A stretch of 64,000 nt of DNA from Lentisphaerota bacterium (GCA_012729265.1 JAAYDL010000060.1:3015-67014), one strand, 5' to 3'; positions 391 to 9,875 are shown, counted from the first letter of the stretch. Program-made: numbers and translations. Notes: generated by a model from the sequence alone, not told the origin.

Positions 391-3357
391 TCATTCATCC
401 GCACTGCCAACGTTCAAGAATTCGAAGCGTCGTGCTTTGAGCAGGTTTTCTCTACAGCAACGCGCTTTGTCTAAAATATCCGAATCCGTACTGGCAAATC
501 CGGCTCGAAGAATTTTCATGACCTGCTCCTCTGGAGGGTGCATATATTTCCCAGCAAATATGACGCTAATCTTCTGCAGACAGTCTAACACGACATCCAG
601 ACAAACCTCGGTGTTTCTGGCCAGTGCCTCGAAGGTAAACAGCAATTCAAAATGCTCGTTTGCAATCAGATCAAGGATTTTCGAAAATACCCCAAGCAAC
701 CATCTCTGATCAAAACATGTGGCCTCAAGCCAGTGAGTGAATTCTGTGAGCTCTTTTTTGCAGCCTTCACTAATTCGCCATTCAAGAAAAGAATGAACCC
801 TTTGCTCCATCGCAGCCGAAAGAGGCTTGCTTGTTCGTCCAAACATGAACCCGGTAGAGCTGAGAAGCTTGTCCCAATGAGCAGTATCAAATTTTGTACT
901 TTCATAGTATTTTTTCAACAGAGCGTCTGGACCATCTTCCGGAATGAGATCCCAGAGATAATAGAGGAACAGTCCGTCGCCAACCGATTTGATCAGATTT
1001 TGATGATCCCATTCAGCTTGGAAAGCGTTGTTAAACGAATCCAGTGCGCGGATGTAATCGTCCTTAAACCAGTCGAAAAATTCGGGATGCGCCCGGCTAC
1101 CTGCCAAAAAGTTGGTGAATGCAACGGACCATGCATCTTGATTATATTCAGGAAACAACGCGGGTTTCAGCTCTTTCGCAACAGGTTTTTCCTTCAAGAT
1201 GAAGAAGTGGACATAGCATCGGCCCAGCATGGCGTATTCCGGCAATGTGAGCGGCAGATCGCAGTCAGAATCAATGCGTTGCCTGATTACTGCCCAAGCG
1301 TCTGATAGATTGACGGTTTTGTCGTGCCGCCGTTTCCATTCCGCATACGCAAACAACTCTTCCCAAGCCCGACTGCGCGCATTATTTATTGCATCAGTGA
1401 ACGGGTGCATTTCTCCATCATTAACCATAATTCTGCGCCCTTGGTCCAAATCCGGATCAGGCTGCAAACACAACCTTCCCAACAGAGCAAGAATTTTCGC
1501 CGCGTAATCAATAGAAATCTCTGTCTCTTTCGACAGGCACGTTGAAATTAGATCGCACACGGCCCGGCGAGATGATGTCCAGTCCCGGGGTTCGGCATCC
1601 GACTCATCACCTCGAAACGAGGTTTCAGTTTTTAGTTGCGGCAAATCCAAAACCTTCGCGCAAAACACCAAATAGTCAGCAATGTGCTCTTGGACTCCCT
1701 CCTTGATAATCTGCTCCATGGAGGCAACCAGAACTTTTACATACACTGGTCGAGTGATTTGACTGAGGGAATTCACCCAGAACCCCAAACGCCTAGAATC
1801 CCTTAAAATAACCTCTGCACATGCCGCCTGAAAGGCATGAGACAGTCCATGTACATTAATCTCCTTCAGTCCGTCTCCATAATCGCGACGACCATTGTTC
1901 CAGCTGTTTATGAACTTCAGCAATTCGGGGTCGCTCAACTTCAGCAATTCGTCCTTTGGCTTGGGACTGACCTCCGAGACAATCCCGCCTTCGGATTTTC
2001 CGACCGGCGAATAATCTTCATCCGAAATATATTCGCTGGCGAGGGCTTCCAGCTCCTGTAGTCGTTTTTCATATTGGCCGAATAAAATTGGACGAAACGG
2101 AAGCAATTGTTTGCGCTGGAAATAATCTTTCCGCTGTTCATACTTTTCTTCCGTATAGCGGTCTCCCATCCATTCCTTAAAGCGTTCTTTAGATGGACTG
2201 CTGAGAATCGTATCAAAGATTTGGTTGCGCTCCGGCTCGGTCAGCAATTCATCCCCAAACTGTATACATGCAGCCCGCAACATTTTCTGGAATTCAAAGG
2301 GATATTCGTACTCATCATAATGAGGGTATCCCAAAATATATGCTCGAACGGCCTCTTTATCGGCCTGGTCGGGATACTTTCCGAAAAGATATTGGCGAAT
2401 TCGCTCGAACACTTTCCAGCGTTGTTTAGCTAGCTGTTGATCGAGTTTCTGAATATTGTCGGGGTCATTCTCATAGACCGCTGCACAGGAATGAGTCAAT
2501 GCCTTCACCAGCAGTTCGGGAGAATTGTCCAGAGAATCTTCATCTTCGACTAAGCGTCGGCACCAGATTTCGGACCAGTCATCGGTATATGTTTTATCCT
2601 TTCGCTGGTCCGGATGCATTTTATGATCAATCATCCGGGCAGTGATCTTAATCAACAGCTCTACCAGCTGGGTCGGCATGGTACGAAGCAGGACCGGAAG
2701 AATTATATCAATAAACTCCTTATATTCATGCGAGTGCATGCCCGGCTGCGGTTCCAGTGAAGTAAAATAATCATTCGGATTTTCTTTGCGCCGCTGGATT
2801 TTTTCTTCTGCCGCAGGATCGGGCTTGAATTCAAGCAGTCGTGACAAAAGACCTGCCAACTGATCAAATGTTCCTACCTTTGCCCATTTGGCTAAAACCC
2901 TGAGAAATCTGTAATGATCAATGCCGTATTTTGATTCAATAAATTCACACACCTTGGGTGCCAAGTTGATTGATTTTTCAGGGGGAATCTTCTCGGCAAT
3001 ATCGATAATAATGTAAAACACATACCGGTTGTCTGTCGGCGGAAATCCAATAATCACATTAACCACCTGATCCGGCACCACCATGCAGATATTTTCCAGA
3101 TATTGAAGCTCCGGCCAGTTCGGAAAGCGGATACTCCCATCTTCCAGCTTCTCAGGTGGTGGGACGGTATTGAATCGCCCACACTCAATCAGCCAATTCA
3201 GCCAGACTGGAGTCTTTAATCGATAAAAGAAAAACTCCGCACAGACCGCATCACTAATGTTCTGCTTTACAAAAGCGAGGTCACCATCCGACGGAACGGA
3301 AGAACTGGCAATTTGTTTTAACTTCAGCAGTGTTTCAGAATAATAAAAATCAGACAT
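391..3357 (-). CDS. Large (988 aa) predicted alpha-helical hypothetical protein, partner of the SIR2-like protein
   Basis: Long ORF with SD (GGAGAGG) and an 8-nt overlap with the SIR2 gene stop. No Walker A or signal peptide seen. The N-terminal FF..L..P.W..WL...G.F motif resembles helical C-terminal regions of large defence proteins. Confidence 0.85.
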   Translation of the reverse strand: MSDFYYSETLLKLKQIASSSVPSDGDLAFVKQNISDAVCAEFFFYRLKTPVWLNWLIECGRFNTVPPPEKLEDGSIRFPNWPELQYLENICMVVPDQVVNVIIGFPPTDNRYVFYIIIDIAEKIPPEKSINLAPKVCEFIESKYGIDHYRFLRVLAKWAKVGTFDQLAGLLSRLLEFKPDPAAEEKIQRRKENPNDYFTSLEPQPGMHSHEYKEFIDIILPVLLRTMPTQLVELLIKITARMIDHKMHPDQRKDKTYTDDWSEIWCRRLVEDEDSLDNSPELLVKALTHSCAAVYENDPDNIQKLDQQLAKQRWKVFERIRQYLFGKYPDQADKEAVRAYILGYPHYDEYEYPFEFQKMLRAACIQFGDELLTEPERNQIFDTILSSPSKERFKEWMGDRYTEEKYEQRKDYFQRKQLLPFRPILFGQYEKRLQELEALASEYISDEDYSPVGKSEGGIVSEVSPKPKDELLKLSDPELLKFINSWNNGRRDYGDGLKEINVHGLSHAFQAACAEVILRDSRRLGFWVNSLSQITRPVYVKVLVASMEQIIKEGVQEHIADYLVFCAKVLDLPQLKTETSFRGDESDAEPRDWTSSRRAVCDLISTCLSKETEISIDYAAKILALLGRLCLQPDPDLDQGRRIMVNDGEMHPFTDAINNARSRAWEELFAYAEWKRRHDKTVNLSDAWAVIRQRIDSDCDLPLTLPEYAMLGRCYVHFFILKEKPVAKELKPALFPEYNQDAWSVAFTNFLAGSRAHPEFFDWFKDDYIRALDSFNNAFQAEWDHQNLIKSVGDGLFLYYLWDLIPEDGPDALLKKYYESTKFDTAHWDKLLSSTGFMFGRTSKPLSAAMEQRVHSFLEWRISEGCKKELTEFTHWLEATCFDQRWLLGVFSKILDLIANEHFELLFTFEALARNTEVCLDVVLDCLQKISVIFAGKYMHPPEEQVMKILRAGFASTDSDILDKARCCRENLLKARRFEFLNVGSADE

Positions 3358-4276
3358 AACCCTCTCCGCTGTTGGGTTTGGTGATAGGATTTAAGCTGCA
3401 TGGAATTTCGCGTCGCCTCTCCCACCGTAAAGTATCCGCAACCTTTTTCCATACTAATCTAAGCCCAGAGAATGAGGCATCGACTTTATCAAAAAGAATG
3501 GTTCCAACTTTAGCTTGTTCGAGCTGATCCGAGAACTCGGGATCGCGCTTTTCACCGTTAGGCAGCAAAATCTTCCAATCCTGTGAAATGTTTGTAATAT
3601 TAAACTTTTCTTTAATTCTCAAAATTGCTTGTAAGACGTAATTAACAGGCTCGTGTTTATTTAAACTAAAGCCCGTAAAAATCACGCTGTTTTGAGAAAA
3701 CACATCAAAGAGGAAAGTTCCGACATGACCGTTGTGTCGAAAATAGGCCTGATCGTATTCATCTTCCGTAAACACAATTTCTAATCTTTGGCTCGGATTC
3801 CTATCAACACGTCCATGTAAGTAGAAAAGATTTTGGGAGCGACAAAGAGAACTCAATAAACGCGAGTTAGAATCGGATGAATAATAGCCCGGACAAGCAC
3901 GATCCTCGAAGGCAAATGCCGTTTCGATAGATCGATCAAAATTGGTCGTCAAAAATGCTTTAAAATTTATGCGAACCACTTCTCTCAATGCAGGAGAACA
4001 ATCGTCTGGGTCTTTAGAAAACATTTCGACAAGAGCCTCCCTAAAACCCTCTGGATTATATTTCTGTAATGCTTGAGTTGCTTTTAGAGGATTGCCTTTC
4101 AGCTTTTCCTTCTCTTTGTAGTTCGTTATTTCTGCCAAGTGTTCGATTAGTTCATTCCATAGTAAATAAGGAGGACATGACAATCCCGCGCCGATAAACA
4201 CAACAGGCCTAGCGTCCTCACTGCCATTAAACATTTCGAGGATTACTTGTGATGCTTTTTCGTTAGTTTTTAACAC
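3350..4276 (-). CDS. SIR2-like (SIR2_2) domain protein, putative NADase
   Basis: Motifs VFIGAGLS, FLTTNFD, FYLHG, VFTEDEY and VIFTGFS; catalytic Asn and His present; GTG start overlaps the upstream stub stop. Confidence 0.88.
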   Translation of the reverse strand: MLKTNEKASQVILEMFNGSEDARPVVFIGAGLSCPPYLLWNELIEHLAEITNYKEKEKLKGNPLKATQALQKYNPEGFREALVEMFSKDPDDCSPALREVVRINFKAFLTTNFDRSIETAFAFEDRACPGYYSSDSNSRLLSSLCRSQNLFYLHGRVDRNPSQRLEIVFTEDEYDQAYFRHNGHVGTFLFDVFSQNSVIFTGFSLNKHEPVNYVLQAILRIKEKFNITNISQDWKILLPNGEKRDPEFSDQLEQAKVGTILFDKVDASFSGLRLVWKKVADTLRWERRREIPCSLNPITKPNSGEGYV

Positions 4277-4527
4277 ACGATTTCCTGCAATCGGGTTATA
4301 CGTTTTCCATAGAAGGTTAAGTTGAGGAGGGTTGCTTTGAGCGCATCGAGATGTCGGTTTTCAGTTTGTAGGAAATAATCGACATAACACCGCGAACCGC
4401 GCTGGTTCCCAGCCATTTTCCGTCCATCCGTAAAATAATATTCACGAATAACGTTCTCCGGCCCCCAACCGGCCGCCGCCAATGCCGGATCGATCAAGTT
4501 TGCTCTGGTATCTGCCTCGCTCAACAT
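4270..4527 (-). pseudogene. Chimeric remnant: type I HsdR N-terminus fused to an HsdS-like C-terminal tail
   Basis: From ATG 4527 (SD GGGGAGG): MLSEADTRANLIDPALAAAGWG..IREYYFTDGR...DYFL (HsdR_N pattern), then LQTENRHLDALKATLLNLTFYGK (HsdS terminal-helix pattern); only 85 aa. Confidence 0.65.
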
Positions 4528-4755
4528 CGTTTCCTCCCCCGTATGCTCCATTTCCCGCGCACGCTGCCTGTAAATGGAAGCAGAGTAACGCGCCTTGCGA
4601 AAGCGCACAAGCTCAACCAAAAAAAGACTGTACTCACAATTCATCAGTAAAACAAAAGGTAAAGGTCCCAATCCCGTAATCGAGTAATTTCACGCCAATG
4701 CTCTAATTTTTCTTTCGGGGTTGCGCTGAATCATGAACTCGGTAAAAGTCTCGGG

Positions 4756-5916
4756 ATGCGTGAAGACTGGATTCAATCAATACTCGACGAGGCCAAAAGC
4801 CGTGGACTGGAACGAACGGCGCGCGCCTATCCCGATGCCGGCGGAAAGCTGATCATCGACGGGCGCGAGGTACTCAATTTTTCGAGCAACGACTATCTCG
4901 ACCTTGCACATCACCCCCACGTGATCGAACGTGCCCGCGAAGCGCTGGAGCAGTACGGCGTCGGCGCAGGTTCATCGAGGCTGGTAACCGGAACGCTGCC
5001 GATCCATGAGGAGCTGGAGGCGCGGCTGGCGCGGGAGAAGGGATTTCCTTCGGCGCTCGTTTTTGGAACGGGCTATATGACCAACGCCGGAGTTATTCCG
5101 GTGCTCGCCGGGCGGGGCGACCTTATTTTTGCCGACAAGCTGGTGCACGCCAGTATGATTGATGCGTGTCGGCTGAGCGAGGCCAAGCTCGTTCGCTTTG
5201 CGCATAATGACGCTGCGGCACTGGAAGCGCGGCTGGAGCAGTATGCCGGCGCCGAAGGTCGCAAGCTGATCATTACCGAATCGGTTTTCAGCATGGACGG
5301 CGATCTTGCTCCGCTGAAGGAAATTGCCGCGCTGGCCGATCGCTACGACGCCATGCTGATGATCGATGAGGCGCACAGCACCGGCACCTTCGGCCCGAAC
5401 GGTGCGGGCCTGATCCGCGAATATGGATTGGAGACGTCGGTGACCGTTTCAATGGGTACGCTGAGCAAGGCGCTGGCGGGTTTTGGCGGATTTGCCGCCT
5501 GTTCCGAAAACCTGCGCAGCCTGCTTGTACATTCTGCCCGGGCGTTCATTTACACCACGGCTCCGCCGCCCGCCGTTGTCGGGGCCGCGCTGGGCGCACT
5601 GGATGTTTTGGACGCTTCGCCCAACCTCGGTAATATTCTCCAAGCCAACGCCGACTATTTCCGTTCATTGCTCCACGACGCCGAACTCGATACGCTCCAG
5701 AGCCGAAGCCAGATCATCCCGATCGTGATCGGCGACAATGAAAAGGCCGTCGCCATTTCGCAGAAGCTGCGCGAGCGGGGCATCATTGCCGCCGCCATTC
5801 GCCCTCCGACGGTCCCTGCGGGTTCTGCGCGCCTGCGCATTTCCATCACGCTGGCGCATCATGTCGACGATCTTGAACGCGCCGCAAAATCGATTATCTC
5901 GGCAGTCAGAAATTAA
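4756..5916 (+). CDS. bioF: 8-amino-7-oxononanoate synthase
   Basis: NFSSNDYL, GAGSSRLVTG, ESVFSMDGD, IDEAHS, GTLSKAL (PLP lysine), AIRPPTVP. Confidence 0.95.
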   Translation: MREDWIQSILDEAKSRGLERTARAYPDAGGKLIIDGREVLNFSSNDYLDLAHHPHVIERAREALEQYGVGAGSSRLVTGTLPIHEELEARLAREKGFPSALVFGTGYMTNAGVIPVLAGRGDLIFADKLVHASMIDACRLSEAKLVRFAHNDAAALEARLEQYAGAEGRKLIITESVFSMDGDLAPLKEIAALADRYDAMLMIDEAHSTGTFGPNGAGLIREYGLETSVTVSMGTLSKALAGFGGFAACSENLRSLLVHSARAFIYTTAPPPAVVGAALGALDVLDASPNLGNILQANADYFRSLLHDAELDTLQSRSQIIPIVIGDNEKAVAISQKLRERGIIAAAIRPPTVPAGSARLRISITLAHHVDDLERAAKSIISAVRN

Positions 5917-5918
5917 CC

Positions 5919-6599
5919 ATGAATTCGGCACTGATCATATCCGGCTGGGCGCATGGAATTGAAGCGATCAAGCCGCTGGGCGATGCCCTTGCCGAGTGCT
6001 TCGAAGTTAAACTATTGACCGGCGCGCAGGTGCTGCGTGAGCGTGCAATTCCCTATGCTGATTTTATCGTTACTGGTTCCATGGGCGGCATTCTGGCGAT
6101 GGAACTGCTGCCGACCGCCTGCAAGAAACTCGTTCTGCTCTCCTCGACCGCCCGCTTCTGCGCAGCGGAGGATTATCCGCACGGAACGCCGGATCGGATT
6201 CTGCGACGCATGATCGCTCAGCTCAAGCGCGACCCCGCCGCCGTACTCAACGAGTTTTTTAAGAACGTCCATTATCCGCAGCGAGAGAGCAGGAAAAGCA
6301 TTCAATTGCGGAATGCAGAAACGATAACGGAACAATCATTCCAGGATTTGGTAGACGGGCTGGAATATCTATTAACTTCCGACGTTCGCGAAAAGGTTGC
6401 AGCGATCACGATTCCCATCCTGCTGATACACGGGCGCGAAGATCGGATTATTCCCTGCGGAGCTGCGGAGTGGCTGCATGAACATCTGCCGGACAGTCGG
6501 CTCCAACTCATCGACGGCGGCGGCCACGCACTGGCGGCACATCATTTTTCAACCGTCGTCGCTCAAATCCGTGCGTTTCTACATCAGCACGATGCATGA
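5919..6599 (+). CDS. bioH: Alpha/beta hydrolase, BioH-like pimeloyl-ACP methyl ester esterase
   Basis: GSMGG nucleophile elbow, HGREDRI, GGGH; directly follows bioF. Confidence 0.7.
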   Translation: MNSALIISGWAHGIEAIKPLGDALAECFEVKLLTGAQVLRERAIPYADFIVTGSMGGILAMELLPTACKKLVLLSSTARFCAAEDYPHGTPDRILRRMIAQLKRDPAAVLNEFFKNVHYPQRESRKSIQLRNAETITEQSFQDLVDGLEYLLTSDVREKVAAITIPILLIHGREDRIIPCGAAEWLHEHLPDSRLQLIDGGGHALAAHHFSTVVAQIRAFLHQHDA

Positions 6600-6611
6600 G
6601 CAGATGCTCGC

Positions 6612-7151
6612 TCAATCCTCATTTTCTGAGACCGCGCTGTCGTCACCCCATCCTTTTGAGCTGCGGGCTTTGACGCGGATATATTTCTGGAAAAACATGG
6701 AGTTGGGGATGTTCACATGGTTTTTATCGGCATCGAGCAGAACCGTGTAGAACGTATTGATTGCCATAACCTGCCCGCGAACTGGATCCGGAGAAACTTC
6801 AATTTCATCATCGATTTTGAACGGCGACGTAAAATAGAGAATGATGCCGGCCAGAATATTACCGACTAAGCTCCAAACCGCAAAAAAGGCAATCGCAACC
6901 ACCGCCAGTACGCTGGAAACCGCTACCCAGACATTTTTCAGAGTCAGGCCCCAAATGAAAATCAGACCGCCAACCGCCGTCAGAATCGCAGCCAGTAACA
7001 GCAGCCGACGCATGGCAAAATAGCGCGACCGGCGGATGCCGAGTTTTTCCTGCGTTTTCCGGGCGGAGCGCGCCAGCAGATGAAAGAGGAGATAAACCAC
7101 GACAAGGAAGATTCCGGAATAAACCAACTGCATGACAACGTCGCTAGTCAT
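6612..7151 (-). CDS. Small-conductance mechanosensitive channel family protein
   Basis: Three TM segments, then NILAGIILYFTSPFKIDDEIEV...GQVMAINTFYTVL...IPNS (MscS family). Confidence 0.85.
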   Translation of the reverse strand: MTSDVVMQLVYSGIFLVVVYLLFHLLARSARKTQEKLGIRRSRYFAMRRLLLLAAILTAVGGLIFIWGLTLKNVWVAVSSVLAVVAIAFFAVWSLVGNILAGIILYFTSPFKIDDEIEVSPDPVRGQVMAINTFYTVLLDADKNHVNIPNSMFFQKYIRVKARSSKGWGDDSAVSENED

Positions 7152-7229
7152 CGTTCACCTCGGTTAATTGCCGATCGCGCTCCTTAAGGCTGTAAAACCG
7201 CGTGATCAATGTTTTTCCTGCGCAATGAC

Positions 7230-8027
7230 CTAAATATCCAAAAGAGAAGCGCCGTCTGTTCCGCGGAATCCGCTTCCTGTAGAAGGAGTTAACGATGGCG
7301 TTGTGGTGGTGCGGGGCGTCGTACTCCGGATTGGCGAAACGCTCGACGGAGCAGAAGAACTTCCCGACGAGGTCGACCAAGCAGATGATGATGACGGCGA
7401 AAGCCCCGGCGTTGTAGTGCGGGTTGCACCCGGAGCGCCCGCCGTGGTTCCGGACATCGGGCTTCCCAGTGAATTCAGGGAACCTAATGCAGACGGGGAC
7501 GCTGGTTGCGGTTGCGAAAACGAAGAATATCCGGACGAATAGGCAGAACCACTAGAAGCACCAGAAGAGTAAGGGGATAAACCGTAGGCAGAGGAAGGAC
7601 TGCGCTCTGTGCTGCGGGTGCGCTGAGCATCCATCAGTCGCTGCCAGTTATCATCCAGCTTTTGCCGCCGCAGGTCCGCCGCGGTCATATCAGAATCCGA
7701 CGTTTCGCCGAACAGGCCGTATTCTTCTTCGGTCTCTTCAAAGCCTGTTGCCCGACGAACGGGTGCACCCGATGGCCGACGAACCATTCCGGAGCCCGCA
7801 GCCAGACTTTCGTTGGAACTCGCTTTAAACCCCGGGTCTCGTCCCAAAGGGTCTTCGTCCGGATCATCCGGCAGCTCCAGATTTAACTGAACGACCTCCT
7901 GCTGCTCAAAAAGATATTTACGCTCAATCCGCAGTTTTCGCTCTTCGCGTGTTTCCGCCGACACCGTGGTGCACATCAAAGGAGCAACGAGGCCAACAAC
8001 CCATAAAATCCGTATAATTCCGTTCAT
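7230..8027 (-). CDS. Exported hypothetical protein with Ser/Thr/Pro-rich low-complexity C-terminus
   Basis: Signal-peptide-like start MNGIIRILWVVGLVAPLMCTTVSA; long S/T/P/G-rich tail. Confidence 0.7.
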   Translation of the reverse strand: MNGIIRILWVVGLVAPLMCTTVSAETREERKLRIERKYLFEQQEVVQLNLELPDDPDEDPLGRDPGFKASSNESLAAGSGMVRRPSGAPVRRATGFEETEEEYGLFGETSDSDMTAADLRRQKLDDNWQRLMDAQRTRSTERSPSSAYGLSPYSSGASSGSAYSSGYSSFSQPQPASPSALGSLNSLGSPMSGTTAGAPGATRTTTPGLSPSSSSAWSTSSGSSSAPSSVSPIRSTTPRTTTTPSLTPSTGSGFRGTDGASLLDI

Positions 8028-8161
8028 GCGTGACAGACTACGACTGCACTCCACTTTCCGTCAACGATCAAATGAACAGAATATGCCCAAACGCTTTTCG
8101 GCTACACAGAATAAATAACAGAAACAAAGATTAGGAAAATACAGATCAGCTGATGCTGTAA

Positions 8162-9844
8162 TCAGGGTTCGGAGGCGGTGTTCACCGCGTAAAGATAACG
8201 CTTAATTTTCTGCGTGGCGGTTTTTTCAAACTCCTCAAAGCGGACCTCAATGCGGCGCGGGCGTTTATAATCAGAAAGATGTGCCATCTGCGCACGCACA
8301 TCGTCGCGCACGATCTTCTCAATCTCCGCCTCGGAGAAGCAGCGACCCTCGGCATTTTCCAGCTCGTCGAAAACCTGCTGGTCCGGAACGACAATCATCC
8401 CCACCCGCTCGCCGGGATCGTCTCCGGAATCGCAGTAGCCCAGCACCAGACATTCAAGCACATAGCGGCTCTGCATCGCCTGCTGCTCCACCTCTTCCGG
8501 ATAAATATTTTTCCCCTCGCGGTTCACGATCAGACTTTTTTTGCGGCCTTTAATCACCAGATAACCCGCATCGTCGAAGCGGCCGAGGTCGCCGGTATAA
8601 TACCAGCCGTCGATCAGCACTTGGGCGGTTTCTTCGGCGTGATTATAGTAGCCCTGCATCACATTATCGCCGCGCACCACAATCTCGCCCACGCCGTCGG
8701 CATTGGGTTCGTGTATCCTGATTTCGATTCCGCTCAGCGGCGGGCCGACGGCCCCGATACGCGGGGCCTCCGGCGGATTAACGCAGAGCACTGGAGCGGT
8801 TTCTGTTATCCCGTAGCCCTCCAGCACCGGAATACCCAACTTGGTCCAGGTTTGAAGCGTTACGGGGCGAATCGGTGCTCCGCCGGACACCACCAGCCGA
8901 AGCGCCCCGCCCATTCCGGCGGACACTTTGTATCCGATCACTTTAGCCAGCCCCAATCGAAACATCCAGCGTCCCGCAAAATTCTCCTGCACGCCGTCCA
9001 TCACGCGCGCCAGCATTTTTTCGAGCAGTAGAGGCACCGTCAGCAAAACCGTCGGCGAACAATCCGCCATGTTCGCTTTAATGGAGCGAAGGTTTTCAAC
9101 AATACTCACTTCACAGCAGACATACAGCGGAACCAGCAGATTGCAGGTGAAAGCAAACGCGTGATGCAGCGGGAGAGCCAGCATAAAATTATCGGTCGAG
9201 CGCACGTGAATGGCCTGAACAATACTGGACACATTGGCCAAAAAATTTCCATGTGTGAGCACCGCCCCCTTTTGCCGACCGGTTGTGCCGGAGGTATAAA
9301 TCAGCGAGGCCGGAGACGAGGCGCTCGGGCCGTCGCAGTCAAACGCCCGACCGGGCTGCATTGCGGCCGACGAGACTGTTTCCCAGAGCGTTTTGTAAGC
9401 AAAACACGAAATTCGCTCGATCTCCGGCGAAGCACCGCCCCTCAACACTACGGCTGATTTTAAGGAAGAGGTTCGCGTAGAAATATCGTCGATCACCGGG
9501 AGCTTGTTGACGGCACAAAAAACGATCGAGACTCCGGCATCGTGAAAGATATGCGCCAGCTCCTGTTCCCGAAGCTTCGCATCGACCGGAACGGCAATAG
9601 CACCGAGCGCAACGATCCCATAGTAGATTTCGAACCACTCGGGAGCATTCTCCAGACAAAGCGCCACGCGGTCGCCCGCACCGACGCCCAGTTGAGCCAG
9701 CATTTGAGAAACGTGCCATGCGCGCTCCCGCAGCGTTTTATAGGTCGTGGTTTTCCAGTGTCCGAGCTGTTTAAAGCGCAACGCAATCCGCTCCGGATGT
9801 TCTTCGGCGGCCCGGTTTAAACAATCTCGAATGGTCATCCTCAT
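8162..9844 (-). CDS. Long-chain fatty acid-CoA ligase (AMP-binding family)
   Basis: YTSGTTGRQKG, EGYGITE and YTGDLG adenylation motifs; start placed at MRMTIRD. Confidence 0.92.
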   Translation of the reverse strand: MRMTIRDCLNRAAEEHPERIALRFKQLGHWKTTTYKTLRERAWHVSQMLAQLGVGAGDRVALCLENAPEWFEIYYGIVALGAIAVPVDAKLREQELAHIFHDAGVSIVFCAVNKLPVIDDISTRTSSLKSAVVLRGGASPEIERISCFAYKTLWETVSSAAMQPGRAFDCDGPSASSPASLIYTSGTTGRQKGAVLTHGNFLANVSSIVQAIHVRSTDNFMLALPLHHAFAFTCNLLVPLYVCCEVSIVENLRSIKANMADCSPTVLLTVPLLLEKMLARVMDGVQENFAGRWMFRLGLAKVIGYKVSAGMGGALRLVVSGGAPIRPVTLQTWTKLGIPVLEGYGITETAPVLCVNPPEAPRIGAVGPPLSGIEIRIHEPNADGVGEIVVRGDNVMQGYYNHAEETAQVLIDGWYYTGDLGRFDDAGYLVIKGRKKSLIVNREGKNIYPEEVEQQAMQSRYVLECLVLGYCDSGDDPGERVGMIVVPDQQVFDELENAEGRCFSEAEIEKIVRDDVRAQMAHLSDYKRPRRIEVRFEEFEKTATQKIKRYLYAVNTASEP

Positions 9845-9875
9845 TTTTCCGATGTGATGGCGTTCACTGCCGTCC

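Follow-up and report, generated by a model that had tools for sequence, protein, structure and literature searches.

Dsr1 (defence-associated sirtuin 1), reportedly described by Gao in 2020 and by Garb in 2022, carries a SIR2 NADase-type effector and a large helical sensor in one chain. It is the system against which we set the cassette analysed here, which consists of a stand-alone SIR2 gene and the gene of a 988-amino-acid (aa) protein, and which lies between positions 391 and 4,276 of a 64,000-nucleotide (nt) stretch of DNA from a Lentisphaerota bacterium (GCA_012729265.1 JAAYDL010000060.1:3015-67014; this whole stretch is called the window below). The sensor of Dsr1 is held in common with Avs7 (PMC13581612, Nature 2026; preprint PMC12803255) and is also found in non-STAND proteins with NADase, nuclease or kinase effectors (PMC13581612; PMC12803255), and the description of this sensor superfamily covers a variety of effectors and includes 'split proteins' (PMC13581612). 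The trigger of both SeAvs7 and EcDsr1 is the phage major capsid protein, which is enveloped by the sensor (PMC13581612); NAD+ depletion together with phage protection and a capsid trigger is known for EcDsr1 only (PMC13581612).

Other named systems resemble the pair in part. DSR2 likewise has a SIR2 NADase governed by a large helical sensor at its C-terminus, to which a structural protein of the phage binds, and its SIR2 fold is close to that of our 308-aa SIR2 protein (template-modelling score, TM, ~0.6-0.7), but it is a single chain with an unrelated sensor. The PADLOC DSR2 model gave no match at the pair, and DSR2 chains are absent among the 50 Foldseek matches in the PDB listed for the sensor, though the SIR2 model does find them. 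By structure, the 308-aa protein is best matched by the small defence SIR2 NADases of Kongming (KomBC) and Thoeris (ThsA), and KomC, of ~270 aa, is likewise a stand-alone SIR2 protein whose partner is encoded by another gene. These systems are activated, unlike what we propose here, by small-molecule signals (dITP, gcADPR) and filament formation, and the pair comes without a SLOG domain, a TIR gene or a KomA/B-like gene; of Thoeris, only the SIR2 part of the ThsA models was matched, with no TIR gene among the neighbours. SIR2-HerA and SPARSA find no counterpart either, the sensor having no P-loop and no HerA or Piwi matches in Pfam and PADLOC; an earlier reading of this DNA, made from the sequence alone and called the original prediction below, was right that the partner is not TIR, HerA, pAgo or STAND-like. 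PrrC/EcoprrI is the established precedent for an effector tied to restriction-modification (R-M). There, as with our pair and its relatives, genes of a suicide-type effector sit within R-M operons or are attached to their ends and are transcribed along with them, but the proteins are unrelated and our pair persists after R-M loss.

Here we report that the 988-aa protein is, by profile comparison, a homologue of the Dsr1/Avs7 sensor, that it is encoded separately from its SIR2 partner in every locus found, and that the pair is probably a two-gene Dsr1-type abortive-infection system left after the deletion of an R-M operon.

Results

A free-standing sensor of the Dsr1/Avs7 type

The sensor gene (391..3357, minus strand) encodes a free-standing alpha-solenoid protein of 988 aa. 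The PADLOC Dsr1 model PDLC04166, of 1227 positions, aligns with residues 40-774 of this protein on profile positions 323-1021 (E=6.2e-12), and the same model covers the product of the SIR2 gene on positions 25-219. Both genes lie on one Dsr1 profile in the right order, and the break between them therefore falls in the linker. The model is matched by 43 of the 46 members of the sensor family, and a same-order protein of 1100 aa reaches E=1.2e-40 on it and aligns with our family profile over 868 columns (hhalign probability 99.7%, E=1e-25). Searching plasmid records with tblastn returned only distant STAND or HEPN-like sensor proteins, including haloarchaeal "ATP-binding proteins". The 1493-aa protein WP_247996002.1, from a haloarchaeal plasmid, has an nSTAND/AAA NTPase at residues 180-340, and its residues 566-1460 match the family profile (hhalign probability 99.5%, E=2e-22), the alignment beginning only past the NTPase, at residue 566. 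This is the layout of SeAvs7, whose sensor comprises residues 561-1523 (PMC13581612).

The pair has in common with Avs7 a homologous sensor over ~900 residues and exchangeable N-terminal effectors, but it has no NTPase/NOD module and hence no ATP-driven oligomerisation switch. A motif search found no Walker A ([AG]xxxxGK[ST]) in the 988-aa protein, as the original prediction had stated, and a Pfam scan of it found no significant domain and no NTPase. The AlphaFold2 (AF2) model of the sensor is entirely alpha-helical (predicted local distance difference test, pLDDT, 89.6). Judged by these profile alignments, the 988-aa protein is a full-length homologue of the Dsr1/Avs7 sensor domain.

A stand-alone SIR2 effector, predicted to be translationally coupled to the sensor

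The SIR2 gene (3350..4276, minus strand, GTG start) encodes a predicted NADase-type effector of 308 aa with a Pfam SIR2_2 match (E=1.1e-17). Its motifs are intact, as had been claimed: GAGLS at residues 29-33, TTNFD at 110-114 and LHG at 153-155. An alignment with 23 homologues, at identities down to 21%, shows G29, G31, N112, H154 and G155 to be invariant; N112 and H154 are the catalytic Asn and His, and G29 and G31 the Rossmann glycines. The N-terminus is kept in homologues from the first residues on. PADLOC matches the protein to the SIR2 regions of the ThsA, LmuA and Dsr1 models, and the best Foldseek matches of its AF2 model (pLDDT 84.8) are ThsA, KomC and the SIR2 domains of DSR2 (TM 0.6-0.78), so that the closest structures to the predicted fold are all defence NADases. 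A phmmer search of 1.84 billion representative proteins with the SIR2 sequence yielded 1068 matches, the closest of which are almost all 295-330 aa long. The nearest long SIR2 protein, P0121 (1054 aa), was considered as a fused relative and rejected; its C-terminus is unrelated to the sensor (hhalign 0.1%).

The stop of the SIR2 gene and the start of the sensor gene overlap by 8 nt (3350..3357, minus strand; ATGTCTGA), the SIR2 frame reading GGT TAT GTC TGA and the sensor frame ATG TCT GAT, and GGAGAGGG stands just upstream. This agrees with the stop-start overlap and separate Shine-Dalgarno sequence of the original prediction, and the arrangement is that expected of translational coupling. 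The overlap is also 8 nt in the related loci L092 and L094, 4 nt in L095 and 1 nt in L093. A promoter scan found no sigma-70-like promoter upstream of the operon on the minus strand, a result that is uninformative for this phylum.

The two genes occur together, and always separately, in nine loci

Nine loci with SIR2 and sensor genes were found, namely the window, L092, L093, L094, L034, L095/96, L097, the P0035 locus and L098, and in all nine the genes are split (fused, 0/9), a SIR2 gene of ~300 aa being followed by a sensor of 955-988 aa. A word-indexed search for SIR2 homologues, at 50-61% identity, gave L092 (hsdS, SIR2 and a 987-aa sensor, with the same overlap as in the window), L093 (the tail of hsdS, SIR2 and sensor) and L094 (SIR2 and sensor, the locus of P0026). 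A genome scan added L034, from Latescibacterota, whose SIR2 and sensor proteins are 39% and 36% identical to those of the window. Five of the close phmmer SIR2 matches, ranging to ~27% identity, were sampled, and they lie in L094 and four further loci: L095/96 (hsdR, hsdM, hsdS, SIR2 of 302 aa, a 965-aa sensor, then HNH_2, DUF4357 and NERD genes), L097 (an R-M scar, SIR2 of 300 aa and a 962-aa sensor), the P0035 locus (ApeA-HEPN, SIR2 of 302 aa, a 955-aa sensor and Abi_C) and L098 (SIR2 of 300 aa, then the start of a sensor gene). The two genes accordingly co-occur well beyond the window, and the split is a real one rather than a fused open reading frame (ORF) broken in this assembly alone.

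Independent metagenomes of three studies (one terrestrial, 2017; one from a bioreactor, 2019; one from wastewater, 2025) contain contigs with the entire 4,800-base-pair (bp) stretch at zero differences, and most of it is present in ~20 runs; it is therefore no assembly artefact. Both ORFs are intact and keep every family-invariant residue. A low-depth contig from a manure metagenome (run X12) has a 1-nt deletion at 2981, in the sensor gene, and single-nucleotide polymorphisms at 948 and 951; the deletion reflects either a frameshift carried by that population or a mistake in the assembly.

One sensor family, several effectors

GTDB representative genomes contain 80 loci with sensors 31-37% identical to that of the window, and a locus in Pontiellaceae (L003) has one that is 62% identical; in all, at least 146 sensor homologues occur in GTDB representatives. 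The family is patchily distributed over more than 10 phyla, including Poribacteria, Latescibacterota, Chloroflexota, Nitrospirota, Pseudomonadota and Bacillota, and only 5 of 61 related genomes gave any match; tblastn found no sensor relatives in phage records. Across 82 sensor loci the effectors are mostly pP_pnuc_1-like (~65, split or fused), with PIN_12 in 8 and SIR2 in 2. The module related to pP_pnuc_1 (PF18165), of ~210-230 aa, is a separate gene in ~45 loci and an N-terminal fusion in ~20; the PIN_12 domain is fused in 7 loci and separate in L066. No PADLOC models matched the pP_pnuc_1-like or PIN_12 modules at the SIR2 position. In the sensor tree, loci with different effectors (L034, SIR2; L066, PIN; L020, fused pP_pnuc) are nearest neighbours, and the window groups with L092 and L095. 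Immune receptor families are marked by just this combination of a conserved sensor and effectors that can be exchanged, and other defence genes (HNH, NERD, ApeA-HEPN, Abi_C) also neighbour the relatives.

Three further observations concern the architecture of these relatives. In 34 loci with split pP_pnuc_1 pairs, module and sensor overlap by exactly 29 nt (for example L002:6001-6029 and L010:6953-6981), and the sequence of the overlap, ATGAAATCTTGGAAGAAACCAACGAATGA, is highly conserved across phyla. A programmed frameshift was considered for this overlap and discarded, as there is no slippery motif and an AAGGAG Shine-Dalgarno sequence lies instead inside the upstream gene. In L026 (4368-6248), L030 (4291-6180) and L074 (4458-6338), the gene of an AAA_15/AAA_21 (OLD/AbiEii-like) ATPase of 626-629 aa sits between hsdS and a fused effector-sensor gene, which it overlaps by 31 nt in two of these loci; the ATPase may be an extra component in that sub-clade. 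L039 has a 1192-aa protein with a pP_pnuc_1 match (3284-6862) followed by a 961-aa sensor homologue (6983-9868), and may hold two sensor genes in a row.

The cassettes are linked to restriction-modification operons

An R-M gene is adjacent in ~36 of the 80 sensor loci (~45%), the cassette being placed within a type I, IIG or III operon or closing it, and in 5 of the 9 SIR2 loci, counting two in which only an hsdR::hsdS scar is left. In 15 of 85 loci, type I genes precede the cassette on its own strand. The gene next upstream, tallied for 73 loci, matches N6_N4_Mtase in 8, Eco57I in 7, MmeI_Mtase in 6 and Methylase_S in 5, while N6_Mtase and a type III methylase domain account for 3 each, these Pfam families overlapping within single proteins. 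Several of the Eco57I/MmeI-type genes stop 2-9 nt ahead of the effector module. The PrrC-like arrangement, in which the effector gene lies within an R-M operon or closes it, in the same orientation, is seen in L095, an intact hsdR-hsdM-hsdS-SIR2-sensor operon, and in L092/L093 (hsdS-SIR2-sensor). On the downstream side, taken as a control, a ResIII/DEAH helicase gene of ~860-880 aa follows the pP_pnuc_1 and sensor cassette in 7 Poribacteria loci (L062, L070, L065, L063, L032, L037 and L073), its start overlapping the sensor stop by 4 nt in several of them. In L073 an N6_N4 methyltransferase gene also lies upstream of the cassette, a gene order that suggests insertion of the cassette in an R-M operon of type III-like make-up. 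For these Poribacteria, the ResIII and methyltransferase assignments come from Pfam tallies and motifs only, and PDB sequence searches with the flanking genes returned no matches. At L001, a 140-aa MmeI_Mtase fragment (4813-5235) lies just upstream of the pP_pnuc_1 and sensor pair; it may be the remnant of a type IIG R-M enzyme that collapsed, which would parallel the type I scars described next.

In the window itself, only a scar of the R-M operon is left. The ORF upstream of the SIR2 gene was called at 4270..4671 (minus strand, TTG 4671), and its likely true start is ATG 4527 behind GGGGAGGA, which gives an in-frame hsdR::hsdS chimera of 85 aa (4270..4527). The stop of this ORF overlaps the GTG start of SIR2 by 7 nt. 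Residues 50-101 of the upstream ORF match residues 6-61 of HsdR (NCBIfam EcoAI R subunit, E=6.6e-10; BLASTP, 1e-8), and its end corresponds to the last 17 residues of HsdS in a relative (HLDALKATLLNLTFYGK vs HLAALKASLLAAAFRGE), with a score reached by 2 of 5000 shuffles. BLASTP of the remnant against the HsdS of L002 found nothing, the tail match being clear only against the closer HsdS proteins of L092/L093. The collapsed type I R-M locus of the original prediction is in this way recognisable as a fusion of an HsdR head with an HsdS tail, and we read the ORF as the scar of a deleted type I R-M operon. An independent chimera in L097 (371-1027) joins HsdR 1-173, 75% identical to intact HsdR, to an HsdS tail, and a third, in the pP_pnuc_1-type locus L031 (5768-6358), joins HsdR 4-140 to an HsdS tail. 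The breakpoints differ (HsdR residue ~61 in the window, 173 in L097 and 140 in L031), and all three chimeras are in frame, each ending at the hsdS stop directly before the effector gene. The scars show that the cassette has been retained in the absence of its R-M system in three independent lineages. The scar ORF probably supplies promoter and leader for the pair, and the deletions hint, tentatively because there are three cases, at selection for continued transcription and translation of the cassette once the R-M genes are lost.

Neighbouring genes and other features of the window

The GC content of the block is 0.40-0.49 against 0.60-0.61 in the neighbouring bioF (4756..5916, plus strand), in line with the AT-richer block noted beforehand. 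Between the scar ORF and bioF, a segment of ~36-40 nt at 4671-4711 recurs, with 1-3 mismatches, on other contigs of three metagenomes, all short and of high depth, and may be a small dispersed repeat. Downstream of the sensor gene, on the minus strand, a HipA_2-like kinase gene (245 aa, Pfam E=8e-60) runs from position 346 to 2 of the window and continues at L091:2623-3360, where it overlaps by 1 nt a DUF3037 gene on the same strand (L091:1772-2623, 283 aa). The source genome has at least two further SIR2-type ORFs matching the SIR2 part of the Dsr1 model, a 559-aa ORF (match at G000:C178:22486-23133) and a 159-aa fragment on a tiny contig (G000:C346:33-419).

Discussion

Our analysis showed that the SIR2 protein is closest in fold to the defence NADases ThsA, KomC and DSR2, and we therefore propose that the pair is a Dsr1-like abortive-infection system in two pieces. 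The 988-aa alpha-solenoid would be its pattern-recognition sensor, a member of the Dsr1/Avs7 sensor superfamily, and the 308-aa SIR2 protein its effector, made as a separate polypeptide by way of translational coupling. SIR2 would presumably be bound and kept inactive by the N-terminal end of the sensor, where relatives bear their fused effector, until the binding of a phage protein to the sensor released or activated it. This trigger would most likely be an HK97-fold major capsid protein, by analogy with EcDsr1 and SeAvs7. Active SIR2 would then hydrolyse NAD+, bringing phage growth to a stop. On this reading the cassette began as the distal part of a type I operon of the order hsdR-hsdM-hsdS-SIR2-sensor, from which an in-frame deletion removed the R-M genes but left the 5' end of the operon and the coupling into SIR2.

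Like Dsr1, the pair combines a SIR2 NADase-type effector with a large helical sensor, homologous to that of Dsr1, and the N-to-C order is the same. It differs in consisting of two polypeptides, encoded in different frames with the break in the linker, where Dsr1 is one chain; in being very divergent, its nearest SIR2 relatives all being stand-alone; and in belonging to a sensor clade that also takes pP_pnuc_1 and PIN_12 effectors and is often operonic with R-M genes. The original prediction of a split DSR-like effector and sensor pair anticipated this arrangement correctly. Its description of the pair as a candidate new anti-phage system went too far, the 988-aa protein being homologous over its whole length to the sensor of the named Dsr1 and Avs7: the pair is a variant of the known Dsr1/Avs7-sensor kind, neither a new system nor a new principle of immunity. 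The claim that it belongs to no named system holds in so far as it is a two-gene pair that scores far below the NCBIfam Dsr1 cut-off, and fails in so far as the sensor is homologous to those of Dsr1 and Avs7. Neither PADLOC 2.0.0 nor the literature examined, Supplementary Table 8 of PMC13581612 aside, describes the pair as a system.

Several results weigh against a Dsr1-type system. Identity to the Dsr1 and Avs7 sensors is low (18-22%), and on the NCBIfam Dsr1 equivalog NF041818 the SIR2 gene scores 25 bits against a cut-off of 1400, with no match for the sensor gene. Comparison of the partner by profile points to the Dsr1/Avs7 sensor, and comparison by fold does not: Foldseek of the sensor model against the PDB returned generic HEAT/ARM solenoids only, with TM <0.27 (importins, FANCD2/I and SF3B1, matches that are uninformative for family assignment), and neither fold nor sequence (with the family profile) turned up a Dsr1 or Avs7 sensor structure in the PDB copy searched. 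The capsid trigger rests on analogy, and sensors so diverged may recognise something else. Fragments identical to the window occur on contigs of four RNA-labelled libraries; those of several runs are scattered across the sensor and SIR2 genes, and single runs supply fragments of the scar ORF and the HipA_2 region. The support that they lend to transcription of the pair is weak, because metatranscriptome libraries of this kind may contain DNA and the assembled contigs have no strand. Finally, the strong linkage to R-M is left unexplained by a sensor of capsid protein pure and simple.

This linkage could mean that the cassette extends the function of the R-M enzyme and that the sensor, rather than recognising capsids, watches the R-M complex or phage anti-restriction proteins and fires when restriction is blocked, as a guard in the manner of PrrC. 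The immediately adjacent R-M genes are mostly on the same strand as the cassette and spaced from it by -4 to +9 nt, as the hsdS-SIR2 loci and the Eco57I/MmeI-type enzymes just upstream illustrate, and some cassettes are flanked by both an upstream methyltransferase and a ResIII gene that overlaps the sensor stop. Yet the pair outlived the deletion of the R-M operon in the window, L097 and L031, and persistence after three independent deletions argues against an effector that depends on R-M. In more than half of the loci, no R-M gene adjoins the cassette. The linked systems belong to three unrelated types, which speaks against a single specific protein-protein interface, and in EcDsr1 and SeAvs7 the trigger of the homologous sensor is the capsid protein (PMC13581612). 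We consider such a guard unlikely. Similarly doubtful is a broader idea, in which one sensor clade forms a plug-and-play second layer of R-M: a free-standing sensor would dock interchangeable effectors in trans (always so for SIR2) from a conserved slot in type I, IIG or III operons, its expression and perhaps its firing would be wired to R-M, for example to the moment when restriction fails or is inhibited, and the scars would reflect selection to keep that wiring.

If the R-M genes have collapsed, the pair could itself be a decaying remnant, no longer properly expressed or functional and heading for loss. The shrinkage of the operon in front to an 85-aa chimera, the 1-nt deletion in the low-depth manure contig and the lack of a sigma-70-like promoter upstream on the minus strand would fit this. 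They are set against two full-length ORFs with all invariant residues, base-for-base identity across the metagenomes of several studies from 2017 to 2025, fragments in metatranscriptome libraries, and a deletion that is in frame and spares the start region and the stop/start overlap, as in the two other independent cases; decay is to our mind improbable. It is very unlikely that the HipA_2-like kinase and DUF3037 are integral to the SIR2 system as parts of a four-gene operon. They follow the sensor on its strand after a gap of 44 bp in which no terminator-like hairpin was detected, but tblastn with both proteins found no match in 88 other sensor loci, relatives have unrelated genes (HNH_2/DUF4357/NERD, rubrerythrin, Abi_C, a transposase-like gene) downstream of the sensor, and Pfam shows HipA_2 and DUF3037 to recur as a pair of their own. 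They make up a separate two-gene module of the same island, which may be another conflict system. Lastly, since SIR2 domains also perform deacylation, the protein might be a deacylase or ADP-ribosyltransferase that acts with a helical scaffold in housekeeping regulation, with no role in immunity. The atypical GC content of the block, the patchy spread of the family with its few matches in related genomes, the swapping of the effector with nucleases, the defence-island context and the defence NADases as closest structures all speak against this, and we give it hardly any weight. A two-gene Dsr1-type system thus remains the reading we favour.

If a Dsr1-type system in two pieces is confirmed, a capsid-type Dsr1/Avs7 sensor would be able to control its effector in trans, as a separate subunit that needs neither a STAND NTPase nor covalent linkage, with SIR2, PIN and pP_pnuc_1 effectors swapped between close relatives. 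The NCBIfam Dsr1 model, and probably the PADLOC system rule too, would miss such a pair or mislabel its sensor gene. The pair offers a simple two-protein system for studying how the binding of a ligand to a solenoid sensor reaches a NADase, and the embedding of these cassettes in R-M operons, together with the repeated in-frame deletion of the R-M genes, provides leads on how layers of defence are co-regulated and inherited.

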